Assembly (NCBI RefSeq): GCF_003790525.1 | Contig: NZ_CP033635.1 | Strand: one strand, 5' to 3' | From: Escherichia coli | GTDB lineage: Bacteria; Pseudomonadota; Gammaproteobacteria; Enterobacterales; Enterobacteriaceae | DNA length: 64,000 bases | Shown: in pieces, positions 44,231 through 47,460 of the stretch | How the letters are laid out: each line of letters opens with the position of its first letter | Position numbering within the stretch: position 1 is the stretch's first letter | Notes under the pieces: model-generated | Told to the model about the DNA's origin: nothing | What the model saw: the letters and a program-made list of their open reading frames with translations, nothing else | Databases searched by the model: none | Position numbers and translations under genes: made by a program

Positions 44231-45364
44231 TCAAAACGAAGCTAATTGACCCTGAATCCAGATTTGTTGCACATGCAGCCCGCTATCCAGCGCAACGACG
44301 CTGGCGCGTTTGCCCGGTTTAAGCGATCCCAGAACACCATCAACACCCAGCATACGCGCCGGATGCAGCGATGCCATATGGATGGCTTCCGCAGGCGTTA
44401 CGCCCGTCAACTCGACCATGTTGCGCACTGCCGCATCGACAGACAGCGTACTGCCCGCCAGCCCACCGGACGCGGTACGGACAACGCCATCGTGCATCTG
44501 CACTTCTTCACCACATAACGTATAGCGACCATCCGGCATCCCGGCTGCCTGCATCGCGTCGGTGATCAGCACGATTCTCTCTTTCGCACAGCAACAACAC
44601 AGCGACATCGCCGCCGGATGTACATGATGACCATCGGCTATCAGTTCCAGCCAGGCGCGCTTGTCCGTTAATCCCGCGCCAACCATCCCCGGTTCGCGGT
44701 GATGTAAACCTGTCATCCCGTTATAGCAATGCACCAGGCCGTCGGCACCAGCGTCAAACGCGGCACGGGTTTGTTGCCAGGTCGCCGCGCTATGCCCCAG
44801 CATCACCCGTACGTTTTGCTGTTTAAGATAGCGGATGGCCTGCAATGCCCCTTCTTTTTCTGGTGCCAGCGCTACTACGCGCAAGGTGTGCTGAGAAACG
44901 GCAATCAATTGATCCAGCTCGGCAATTTCCAGCTCGCGAAACAGCTCCGGCGGATGCGCGCCTTTATTCTGCGGCGTGAAGTACGGTCCTTCGAGATAAC
45001 TCCCCAGCACTTGCGCACCAGGTCCGCCACGCTGGCAGCGTAGAGCAATACGTTTCAGCGCCGCATGAATGGTATTAAGCGGCGCGGTTACGGTGGTCGG
45101 TAACCAACTGCCGACACCTTCGCGTGCCTTGTGCATTGCCAGCTTGTCGAGCGCATCCGGCGCATCATCCATTACATCAACGCCCGCACCACCGTGTACA
45201 TGGGTGTCGATGTAAGCGGGACAGAGCAGTTCCGCATCGCGTTCAGTCACGCCCACTGGAATCGGTTCGATTGCTGCGATTACACCGTCAGCAATACGCA
45301 ACTGATGGTCATCGAGCCATCCCTCTTCAGTCAGCAGCCTTCTGGCGCGCAGAACGTGTGTCAT
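44231..45364 (-). CDS. agaA: N-acetylgalactosamine-6-phosphate deacetylase, full length (NagA family)
   Basis: ORF from ATG at 45364 MTHVLRARRLLTEEGWLDDHQL..., 377 aa, metal-binding HVHGG; in-frame upstream ATG at 45385; ATGA overlap with agaF stop. Confidence 0.85.
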   Translation of the reverse strand: MTHVLRARRLLTEEGWLDDHQLRIADGVIAAIEPIPVGVTERDAELLCPAYIDTHVHGGAGVDVMDDAPDALDKLAMHKAREGVGSWLPTTVTAPLNTIHAALKRIALRCQRGGPGAQVLGSYLEGPYFTPQNKGAHPPELFRELEIAELDQLIAVSQHTLRVVALAPEKEGALQAIRYLKQQNVRVMLGHSAATWQQTRAAFDAGADGLVHCYNGMTGLHHREPGMVGAGLTDKRAWLELIADGHHVHPAAMSLCCCCAKERIVLITDAMQAAGMPDGRYTLCGEEVQMHDGVVRTASGGLAGSTLSVDAAVRNMVELTGVTPAEAIHMASLHPARMLGVDGVLGSLKPGKRASVVALDSGLHVQQIWIQGQLASF

Positions 45365-45795
45365 ATTCCTTCCTCGACCGGACATTCCTCATGGCAGCGA
45401 CCAAGTTCGTCCACCAGACTGGTTAGCCCACGGTGTCCACACTCCAGCGCCTGCACACGGAACTCTTCACCGCTTAACCCTTCGCGTTCCAGCACCATTT
45501 CCAGTAATAGTTGCAAATTTGTGCCGGTGATCACTTCACAGCCCGGTTTTTGCATCGCCAGCGTTGAAGCTACGCGAAACGGCGTGCCGCCCAGCAAATC
45601 CGTCAGAAAAACAATGCCGTCTTCACAATCCAGTTGGACGATGGCCTCTTCAAGCTGCGATGTAAGCAGCGCGGTGCTTGAGGTTTCCGGAAAATCGATG
45701 GCGATAAACTGCGATTGCTCACCGAGAATTTGCTTCATTGCTTTTTCCATGCCGCTGGCAAATCCGCCATGCCCTGTCAAAATAATACTTAACAT
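45361..45795 (-). CDS. agaF: PTS mannose-family IIA component (N-acetylgalactosamine-specific)
   Basis: 144-aa ORF MLSIILTGHGGFASGMEKAMKQILGEQSQFIAIDFPETSS... Confidence 0.85.
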   Translation of the reverse strand: MLSIILTGHGGFASGMEKAMKQILGEQSQFIAIDFPETSSTALLTSQLEEAIVQLDCEDGIVFLTDLLGGTPFRVASTLAMQKPGCEVITGTNLQLLLEMVLEREGLSGEEFRVQALECGHRGLTSLVDELGRCHEECPVEEGI

Positions 45796-45812
45796 CTAAT
45801 ACCTCATTGTAT

Positions 45813-46697
45813 TTAAAGGAAATGGCAGAATTTACCGACGATGCCGAGAACCACGGTAACCGCAATCAGGCGCAGCGGACTCCAGCCGCGGCGTACCAGC
45901 CAGAACATGGTCAGGGTGTAGACCAGCGGTAAGAAGGCTGGCATCAGTTTGTCGATAACATCAGCCTGTAACTTAACCACTGCGTCGCCCGCGGTGATTT
46001 CCAGCGTGGTGCTTAAACGAACATAGGTTGCCACCAGCGCGCCGATTACCGTCATCCCAACGATAGATGCCGCATGGCCGACTTTTTTGGTATTTGCTTT
46101 AATGAGTGGAATCGCCGCCACGCCCATGCGGTAAGCATAATGCGCCAGACCAAAACGCAGCCCCAGGTGCACCACGTTGAACAGCACAATAAAGACGACA
46201 GCGCCAAGAATAGAGCCTTGTAGCGCGAGGCTTGCACCTATCCCGCCACAAATCGGCAGTAGCGTTAGCCAGAACATCGCATCGCCAATCCCGCCGAGCG
46301 GCGCACCGACGGCAATTTTGGTGCTCTGAATACTGTTAACGTCCTGCTTAGAACGCTCCATCGCAAGGATAATGCCGATAACAAACGTCACCAGAAACGG
46401 ATGGGTATTGAAGAAACCCATATGCCCCTTCATGGCGCGCGCCAGGTCGCGTTTATTAGTGTGGATCTTTTTCAGAGCAGGCAGCAGACCGTACAACCAG
46501 CCAGAAGCCTGCATACGTTCGTAGTTAAAAGACGCTTGTAACAGCATGGAACGCCAGGCGACGCGGTTGATATCTTTTTTCGTCAGCTCTGCGCCAATGC
46601 TCTGATCTTCATACACGTTTTCATTGACACCTGTCAGCAGTGTTTCTTCGTTTTCACTGACGTTCGGCAGGGTAGTTTGATTAGATGCCATCTTCAA
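45813..46697 (-). CDS. agaE: PTS mannose-family IID component (N-acetylgalactosamine-specific)
   Basis: 294-aa ORF containing ...LTKKDINRVAWRSMLLQASFNYERMQASGWLYGLLPALKK..., paralogous to agaD; exact start uncertain. Confidence 0.8.
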   Translation of the reverse strand: MKMASNQTTLPNVSENEETLLTGVNENVYEDQSIGAELTKKDINRVAWRSMLLQASFNYERMQASGWLYGLLPALKKIHTNKRDLARAMKGHMGFFNTHPFLVTFVIGIILAMERSKQDVNSIQSTKIAVGAPLGGIGDAMFWLTLLPICGGIGASLALQGSILGAVVFIVLFNVVHLGLRFGLAHYAYRMGVAAIPLIKANTKKVGHAASIVGMTVIGALVATYVRLSTTLEITAGDAVVKLQADVIDKLMPAFLPLVYTLTMFWLVRRGWSPLRLIAVTVVLGIVGKFCHFL

Positions 46698-47460
46698 ATT
46701 CCTCTTTCTGTGCCGCAGGTTGAGTCGGTTCAGGAGATTTACGCAGCAAGTCGATCAGCGCCATCGCCAGCGCGGCGGCAGCAATAGCCAGCACCGGTAA
46801 CTTGAGCCAGGCTGCGGCAACAAAGCCCAGGATGAAGTAGGGGATGTAGACGTTTTTCATCATGATTTTCAGCAGCACGGCAAAACCGATTGCTGGCATG
46901 ATGCCACCCGCGACGCCGAGGCCGTCGATTAATCGTTGCGGCAGGACATCAATGATGGTTTTGGCATGTTCTGCGCCGAAGTAGATAGGCAGGAAAGCGC
47001 AGAGAAAATAGAACGTGCCGAGTGCCAGCAATGCCAGATAGTTCACGCGTTCAATGCCGCGAGTATCGGCGTTCTCCGCCATCCGGTCGCAGCGGGACAT
47101 CACGCCGGACATCACCGAGAACAGGAAGGTAATCCCCATCTGTACTGCGACAGCGAAAGGTACGGCGACACCGACCGCGACATCCGGTTTCACGCCAGTA
47201 GTAATGGCAAACGCCGTGCCGACGATAGTACCGATAATCACGTTAGGCGGTTGTGCGCCTGCCAGCGGGGCCAGCCCCATCCACACCAGTTCCAGCGTAC
47301 CGCCGGTTAAAATACCGGTATGCAGATCGCCAAGTACCAGTCCGACCAACGGGCCGAGGACCACCGGGCGGTGCATATGGGTTAGGCCGTTAAACATATC
47401 CAGGCCAGCGATAAAGGCGATAATGCCCAACGCGAATGCCTGCAACAGACTGATTTCCAT
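46681..47460 (-). CDS. agaW: PTS mannose-family IIC component, full length (N-acetylgalactosamine-specific)
   Basis: 259-aa hydrophobic ORF MEISLLQAFALGIIAFIAGLDMFNGLTHMHRPVVLGPLVGLVLGD... Confidence 0.85.
   Translation of the reverse strand: MEISLLQAFALGIIAFIAGLDMFNGLTHMHRPVVLGPLVGLVLGDLHTGILTGGTLELVWMGLAPLAGAQPPNVIIGTIVGTAFAITTGVKPDVAVGVAVPFAVAVQMGITFLFSVMSGVMSRCDRMAENADTRGIERVNYLALLALGTFYFLCAFLPIYFGAEHAKTIIDVLPQRLIDGLGVAGGIMPAIGFAVLLKIMMKNVYIPYFILGFVAAAWLKLPVLAIAAAALAMALIDLLRKSPEPTQPAAQKEEFEDGI

Follow-up and report, generated by a model that had tools for sequence, protein, structure and literature searches.

Is the uninterrupted agaV-agaW-agaE-agaF-agaA segment of Escherichia coli SMS-3-5 a peculiarity of this strain, or is it the reference strain K-12 that departs from the species? 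The window, i.e. the whole stretch of 64,000 nucleotides analysed here, is 100% identical to the SMS-3-5 chromosome (NC_010498.1). It almost certainly holds the aga/gam regulon of E. coli in its complete and ancestral form of 13 genes, K-12 being the strain with a 2,305-bp loss. The intact cluster and the K-12 loss are both already published and not new, the latter having been in the literature since 2000.

Gene content and integrity of the cluster

RefSeq annotates all 13 aga/gam genes in the window (Table 1), none of them flagged as a pseudogene. According to the ORF list and the RefSeq annotation their order is agaR / kbaZ-agaV-agaW-agaE-agaF-agaA / agaS-kbaY-agaB-agaC-agaD-agaI, with agaV to agaA uninterrupted on the minus strand between kbaZ and agaS. 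All 13 ORFs possess normal start and stop codons without internal stops, and re-inspection of the window revealed neither frameshifts nor premature stops. Ribosome-binding sites are of the GAGG/AGGA type, and the spacing is operon-like. The GC content across 44-47.5 kb (0.51-0.58) is similar to that of the surroundings.

The initial annotation had described an intact agaV-W-E-F-A segment with a full-length agaW (259 aa) and agaA (377 aa). The ORFs and the full-length family-model matches bear this out, and the agaA length agrees with RefSeq. The range given for the segment, 44231-47460, extends from the stop codon of agaA to the start codon of agaW and covers agaW, agaE, agaF and agaA, but leaves out agaV, although the gene was named in the title. 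Overlapping stop/start junctions, described there as a feature of the segment, occur at two of the four junctions, agaW/agaE (11 nt) and agaF/agaA (4 nt, ATGA); spacers of 10 nt and 17 nt separate agaV/agaW and agaE/agaF, respectively. In agaA, agaE and agaV the longest mechanical ORFs (384 aa; 294 aa, TTG; and 169 aa, GTG, respectively) begin upstream of the RefSeq starts.

Table 1. Features of the aga/gam locus in the window, with the evidence for each
Feature	Position	Strand	Evidence
agaR	49496..50305	+	NCBIfam AgaR equivalog NF040755, E 2.5e-140, full length; RefSeq annotation
kbaZ-agaR divergent promoter region	49279..49479	.	AgaR operator-like boxes 49279-49302, 49361-49384, 49456-49479
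kbaZ (agaZ), tagatose-1,6-bisphosphate aldolase non-catalytic subunit, 426 aa, GTG start	47967..49247	-	NCBIfam NF012002, E 4e-270, 1-426/428
agaV, GalNAc PTS EIIB, 157 aa	47471..47944	-	NCBIfam NF008508, E 2.3e-96, 1-157/157
agaW, GalNAc PTS EIIC, 259 aa	46681..47460	-	NCBIfam AgaW NF040757, E 1.8e-123, 1-249/249
agaE, GalNAc PTS EIID, 292 aa	45813..46691	-	NCBIfam AgaE NF040760, E 2.8e-186, 1-292/292
agaF, PTS EIIA common to GalNAc and GalN transporters, 144 aa	45361..45795	-	NCBIfam AgaF NF040761, E 7.7e-65, 1-144/144
agaA, GalNAc-6-phosphate deacetylase, NagA family, 377 aa	44231..45364	-	TIGR00221 nagA, E 1.5e-85, full length
2,305-bp block absent in K-12	44786..47090	.	blastn vs MG1655 and junction display; same length vs strain H6
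10-bp imperfect direct repeat, agaA-side copy (GGTCGCCGCG)	44780..44789	+	Junction alignment
10-bp imperfect direct repeat, agaW-side copy (GGTCGCAGCG), version kept by K-12	47085..47094	+	Junction alignment
agaA-agaS spacer, 350 bp, agaS promoter region	43881..44230	.	AgaR operator-like boxes 43932-43955, 44010-44033, 44169-44192
REP-like inverted repeat in agaA-agaS spacer	44101-44155		Inverted-repeat search
agaS, GalN-6-phosphate deaminase/isomerase, 384 aa	42726..43880	-	TIGR02815 agaS_fam, E 7e-190
kbaY (agaY), tagatose-1,6-bisphosphate aldolase catalytic subunit, 286 aa	41853..42713	-	RefSeq annotation, intact ORF
agaB-agaC-agaD-agaI group	38819..41686	-	RefSeq annotation, ORFs intact
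agaB, GalN PTS EIIB	41210-41686	-	RefSeq annotation, intact ORF
agaC, GalN PTS IIC	40368-41171	-	RefSeq annotation, intact ORF
agaD, GalN PTS IID	39587-40378	-	RefSeq annotation, intact ORF
agaI	38819-39586	-	RefSeq annotation, intact ORF

Family models cover all eight proteins scanned (AgaV, AgaW, AgaE, AgaF, KbaZ, AgaR and those of the NagA and AgaS families) from end to end; for AgaV, AgaW, AgaE, AgaF and AgaA a curated model is matched over its full length (E 1e-65 to 1e-186). The equivalog matches of AgaF, AgaV, AgaW and AgaE all exceed the model cutoffs, so the four PTS components (IIA/IIB/IIC/IID) are full length. AgaA scores 287 bits against TIGR00221 (cutoff 226), aligns with PDB 7nut over residues 3-374 and end-to-end with solved NagA structures, and retains in this alignment the motifs HxH, LEGP (E), GHS (H), H-x-x-N and TDA (D).

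The intact clusters used as comparators were those of one O157:H7 strain and of strain H6, and the six genes compared are equal in length in both. AgaW is identical to the protein of either strain and AgaE to that of O157:H7. AgaF differs from its H6 and O157 counterparts by a single substitution, A53V. AgaV differs from the other intact clusters in 1-2 residues and AgaA in 6-8 of 377, including V71A, Q108L, H179Y and G292D. At the DNA level the window is 2.5-3.5% diverged from most E. coli.

The aga/gam regulon of E. coli C is reportedly the subject of Brinkkötter et al. in Mol Microbiol 37:125 (2000). This strain matches the window in its 13 genes and in their order, with two PTS sets (AgaVWE and AgaBCD) that have AgaF in common, plus AgaA, AgaS, KbaY/KbaZ, AgaI and AgaR (Hu et al. 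2013, PMC3668189). The window differs from it by alleles only, O157:H7 and H6 being the clusters actually compared. The C-terminus of AgaI is also different, since the window lacks the adjacent yraHIJK operon. E. coli C, in which none of the 13 genes is missing, has an Aga+ Gam+ phenotype (PMC3668189, PMC9628945, PMC2808357), and the genotype of SMS-3-5 is predicted to be Aga+ Gam+.

Predicted pathway and regulation

In the pathway as established for E. coli C and O157:H7, AgaR would keep the promoters in front of kbaZ, agaS and agaR repressed until an inducer is present. A mannose-family PTS of AgaV (IIB), AgaW (IIC), AgaE (IID) and AgaF (IIA) would import and phosphorylate GalNAc, and GalN would enter through AgaBCD, with AgaF borrowed as IIA. 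AgaA would deacetylate GalNAc-6-P to GalN-6-P, a step in which NagA could take its place. AgaS, whose function has been assigned genetically (PMC3668189), would turn GalN-6-P into tagatose-6-P by deamination and isomerisation. After phosphorylation of tagatose-6-P by PfkA, the resulting tagatose-1,6-bisphosphate would be cleaved by KbaY/KbaZ into DHAP and glyceraldehyde-3-P.

The IIA/IIB/IIC/IID architecture of AgaVWEF is common to the mannose-family PTS (ManXYZ; TC 4.A.6), and AgaV, AgaW, AgaE and AgaF also match mannose/fructose/sorbose subfamily models. Their equivalog models, however, score far above the mannose models, and AgaVWEF differs from ManXYZ in its substrate, GalNAc, and in the distribution of the four domains on separate polypeptides.

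The AgaR operator consensus, reportedly given by Ray and Larson in 2004, is WRMMTTTCRTTTYRTTTYNYTTKK. Its six matches in 64 kb at no more than three mismatches (0.09 expected) show clustering of a motif, not binding. All six of these operator-like boxes are located in two aga intergenic regions, kbaZ/agaR and agaA-agaS, and nowhere else in the 64 kb. A consensus scan for sigma-70 promoters and terminators over 38700-50400 yielded six promoter-like sites, whereas 10 were expected from shuffled sequence; the scan is insensitive, and none of its sites convincingly marks the known PZ, PS or PR promoters.

The K-12 deletion, its frequency and its origin

The locus of K-12 MG1655 has the same neighbours as the window, garD, prlF-yhaV and agaR on one side and rsmI and lpoA on the other. 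In blastn, MG1655 aligns as two collinear blocks, corresponding to 41880-44789 and 47085-51250 of the window; MG1655 lacks 2,305 bp between the two, and the DNA identity outside the deletion is 96.6-98%. Unlike the window, K-12 lacks agaE and agaF, which the deletion takes out. Its agaW is cut after codon 125, resulting in an AgaW' of 133 aa, 125 of them native and 8 out of frame. In agaA the truncation is at the 5' end, with the N-terminal half lost and approximately 185 C-terminal codons kept. RefSeq lists both remnants as partial pseudogenes. The deletion of agaE/agaF and truncation of agaW and agaA, which the initial annotation had described for K-12, is thus seen in the alignment, and MG1655 possesses no uninterrupted agaW-agaE-agaF-agaA arrangement. 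The loss of IID, IIA and half of IIC accounts for the Aga- Gam- state of K-12, attributed in publications to a 2.3 kb deletion (PMC3668189, PMC9628945, PMC2808357); the same papers agree that this is a strain-level difference of known phenotype rather than a new system, as had been proposed for the segment. In the passages concerned, PMC3668189, PMC2808357 and PMC9628945 cite Brinkkötter 2000 for the 2.3 kb loss.

The deletion endpoints carry a 10-bp imperfect direct repeat, GGTCGC(C/A)GCG, with 6 + 3 matching bases, and the 6 bp that the copies share, GGTCGC, leave the register of the deletion ambiguous. The K-12 junction reads ...CCAGGTCGCAGCGAGACATCACG.... Junction alignments contain no similarity beyond the 10-bp repeat at the endpoints, and no mobile-element scars are present at 44780 and 47094.

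The segment is present at a coverage of at least 80% in about nine in ten complete E. coli genomes (4,931 of 5,426), and the K-12 junction in 371. The matches listed comprise 60 of these 371, and all 60 are K-12 laboratory derivatives, including MG1655, C600, DH5alpha, DH1, J53 and NCM3722. Approximately 124 complete genomes have neither this coverage nor the K-12 junction, 16 of them without any match at all; the approximately 124 may contain IS insertions or other deletions. The intact aga segment is the E. coli norm and K-12 the exception. Given this norm, and a junction confined to K-12 derivatives among the matches listed, the finding concerns K-12 and not SMS-3-5.

An insertion or horizontal acquisition of the 2.3 kb in SMS-3-5, instead of a deletion in K-12, has next to nothing to commend it beyond the bare difference in presence and absence. 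The segment occurs in 4,931 genomes and the junction, among the matches listed, in K-12 derivatives only; its GC content is like that of its surroundings, and the flanking K-12 ORFs are broken mid-gene (AgaW' out of frame, agaA without its N-terminus), the signature of a deletion. Acquisition was rejected on the population frequency together with the truncated K-12 ORFs. As to how K-12 lost the segment, the part of PMC2808357 that cites Brinkkötter 2000 speaks of site-specific recombination. We regard this as unlikely: in the junction alignments the endpoints share only the 10-bp imperfect repeat, a pattern typical of microhomology-mediated deletion, and the event is found only in the K-12 lineage among the matches listed. 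The evidence leans towards a one-off microhomology-mediated event at GGTCGC(C/A)GCG, fixed in the K-12 lineage, in which the 2,305 bp would have been lost by recombination between the repeat copies in agaA and agaW. As a minor addition to the microhomology reading, the locus may be a recombination mosaic, since the identity of strain H6 to K-12 is 99.4% on one side of the breakpoint (kbaZ-agaW) but only 95.5% on the other (agaA-agaS).

It is very unlikely that the cluster is intact in sequence and silent in phenotype, i.e. that a missense or regulatory defect makes SMS-3-5 Aga- or Gam-. There is a precedent in O157:H7. The agaVWEFA genes of EDL933/Sakai are intact as in the window, but agaC and agaI contain amber codons, at codons 8 and 72, respectively, which make O157:H7 Gam-, and spinach-outbreak strains carry in addition AgaF G91S, which alone inactivates the pathway and renders them Aga- (PMC3668189). 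SMS-3-5 has substitutions of its own, AgaF A53V and the 6-8 in AgaA relative to other strains, and the searchable literature yielded neither phenotype data for SMS-3-5 nor growth or expression data on GalNAc/GalN. However, the three loss-of-function alleles defined in PMC3668189 (AgaF G91S, agaC Q8amber, agaI Q72amber) were checked in the window and are all absent, with Gly91, Gln8 and Gln72 in their place. The A53V exchange is conservative, AgaW and AgaE match the proteins of the O157:H7 strain in every residue, and AgaA retains its active-site motifs and is dispensable, as NagA substitutes for it (PMC3668189). The SMS-3-5 cluster is species-typical and probably functional, and from its intact state we infer that the strain would grow on GalNAc and GalN.

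K-12 as a reference for amino-sugar catabolism

Intestinal mucin contains GalNAc, the use of which has been investigated in commensal and pathogenic E. coli colonising the gut. For SMS-3-5 the result is an ordinary one, and its significance beyond correct annotation is small. As a reference for the catabolism of amino sugars K-12 is atypical, and metabolic models and annotations transferred from it therefore under-call the pathway in other strains.

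Gene content of the aga/gam cluster

Over the 5.4 kb queried, the window matches the E. coli SMS-3-5 chromosome (NC_010498.1, reverse orientation) at 100% identity. The entire aga/gam cluster, responsible for GalNAc (Aga) and GalN (Gam) utilisation, spans 38819-50305, and none of its 13 ORFs is interrupted; their start and stop codons are normal and their ribosome-binding sites rich in purines. It is flanked by tdc, gar and prlF-yhaV at one end and by rsmI, lpoA, nusA-infB and ftsH at the other, all of them ordinary core genes of E. coli. Of these, the type II toxin-antitoxin pair prlF-yhaV (50360-51159) directly adjoins agaR, likewise in K-12, and YhaV is the same protein in both (one WP accession).

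Genes of the aga/gam cluster in window coordinates
Gene	Position	Strand	Length (aa)
agaR	49496-50305	+	269
kbaZ	47967-49247	-	426
agaV	47471-47944	-	157
agaW	46681-47460	-	259
agaE	45813-46691	-	292
agaF	45361-45795	-	144
agaA	44231-45364	-	377
agaS	42726-43880	-	384
kbaY	41853-42713	-	286
agaB	41210-41686	-	158
agaC	40368-41171	-	267
agaD	39587-40378	-	263
agaI	38819-39586	-	255

The five genes agaV, agaW, agaE, agaF and agaA are all present at full length, as the initial annotation held, with open frames and family models matched end to end. AgaV, AgaW, AgaE and AgaF each cover the whole length of the NCBIfam equivalog model of their own subunit (E 1e-65 to 1e-186). AgaA covers the family model of NagA deacetylases end to end, and its residues 3-374 align with solved NagA structures, metal-binding and catalytic motifs in place. 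The interval assigned to these genes, 44231-47460, reaches the agaW start and leaves out the named agaV; overlapping stop/start junctions occur at two of the four boundaries (agaW/agaE, 11 nt; agaF/agaA, 4 nt), the other two being spacers of 10 and 17 nt. For agaA, agaE and agaV, the longest mechanically called ORF starts upstream of the RefSeq-annotated start. RefSeq (PGAP) labels agaA, the paralogue within the aga cluster, "nagA: N-acetylglucosamine-6-phosphate deacetylase", which could mislead automated pathway calls.

Endpoints of the K-12 deletion

When window 41880-51300 is aligned with the corresponding K-12 MG1655 locus (NZ_CP010440.1), positions 41880-44789 and 47085-51250 form two separate, collinear blocks that overlap by 10 bases in K-12. 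The junction carries a 10-bp imperfect direct repeat, GGTCGCCGCG at 44780-44789 (agaA) and GGTCGCAGCG at 47085-47094 (agaW), with copies 2,305 bp apart, of which K-12 retains the agaW version (junction display). Strain H6, a comparator with an intact cluster, has the same repeat at the same 2,305-bp distance, and encodes KbaZ and AgaR proteins identical to the K-12 ones. The alignment bears out that K-12 lacks agaE and agaF and has truncated agaW and agaA: AgaW ends after 125 native residues and 8 out-of-frame codons (133 aa), and about 185 C-terminal codons of agaA are left. The event agrees with the published 2.3 kb deletion that renders K-12 Aga- Gam- (PMC3668189; PMC9628945; PMC2808357; all citing Brinkkötter et al. 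2000), which supports the earlier reading as strain-level variation. This literature names it "site-specific recombination"; for an imperfect direct repeat of 10 bp, short-homology illegitimate recombination is the better fit.

H6 and K-12 are mosaic about the deletion point, with 99.4% identity in agaW-kbaZ-agaR and 95.5% with 10 gaps in agaA-agaS, which suggests a recombination boundary in or near the aga cluster of phylogroup A strains.

Predicted function and regulation

A 24-nt AgaR operator consensus, reportedly described by Ray & Larson 2004 and used as a lead rather than a test, matches six sites in the 64-kb window, where 0.09 would be expected. The sites are confined to two intergenic regions, kbaZ-agaR and agaA-agaS, and two of those in the agaS promoter region are arranged as an inverted pair. 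The 350-bp agaA-agaS spacer also holds, downstream of agaA, a REP-like inverted repeat (TGCCGGATGCGGCG...CGTCGCATCCGACA, 44101-44155), a 41-nt piece of which (44117-44157) also matches an unannotated site in another genome.

The window lacks the three published inactivating point mutations: AgaF retains Gly91, AgaC Gln8 and AgaI Gln72 (alleles defined in PMC3668189). AgaW and AgaE do not differ from the proteins of an O157:H7 strain; relative to the comparator strains, AgaF differs by A53V, AgaV by 1-2 residues and AgaA by 6-8 of 377. These lines all point to a probably functional cluster, and with putative AgaR boxes clustered at its promoter regions the regulatory layout looks intact. As the searchable literature yielded no phenotype data for SMS-3-5 on GalNAc or GalN, its growth on either is a prediction.

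In the established pathway (PMC3668189 and references therein), the cluster is under repression by AgaR; GalNAc is imported and phosphorylated by AgaVWE with AgaF as IIA, and GalN is imported by AgaBCD, again served by AgaF. GalNAc-6-P is deacetylated by AgaA, NagA being able to stand in, AgaS converts GalN-6-P to tagatose-6-P by deamination and isomerisation, and PfkA, then KbaY/KbaZ, finish conversion to triose phosphates. Loss of AgaF alone eliminates both uptake routes, which accounts for the double-negative K-12 phenotype.

Distribution among E. coli genomes

The window lacks the yraHIJK fimbrial operon that separates agaI from rsmI in K-12; 99 bp (38763-38861) stand in place of 5,484 bp of K-12 sequence. 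Because the break lies 31 nt short of the stop codon of K-12 agaI, the AgaI C-terminus is altered (...HNHFTCVIDEMCRR, 255 aa, versus ...HSNFICLINT, 251 aa, in K-12). The window-type junction occurs in 1,821 of 5,426 complete E. coli genomes and is thus a common polymorphism.

At least 80% of window 43880-49250 is covered at a single place in 4,931 of the 5,426 complete genomes. At the same threshold, 371 genomes cover a 120-nt probe spanning the K-12 junction, and about 124 genomes fall in neither class. The REP-like repeat probably explains the median of two places per genome in this search. Only 26 of 5,417 matching records reach at least 99% identity (most 96.5-98%), so the SMS-3-5 aga allele belongs to a minority lineage, an ordinary phylogroup divergence. 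Among the matches listed (60 of 371), all 60 junction genomes are recognisable K-12 derivatives, including MG1655, C600, DH5alpha, DH1, J53, RR1 and NCM3722. The intact arrangement is therefore the E. coli norm and the deletion, judged from these 60 of 371, a K-12 lineage marker. The agaVWEFA difference from K-12 is textbook strain variation, known from publications and from the RefSeq annotation, to which the present work makes one small addition, the exact endpoint structure of the K-12 deletion.
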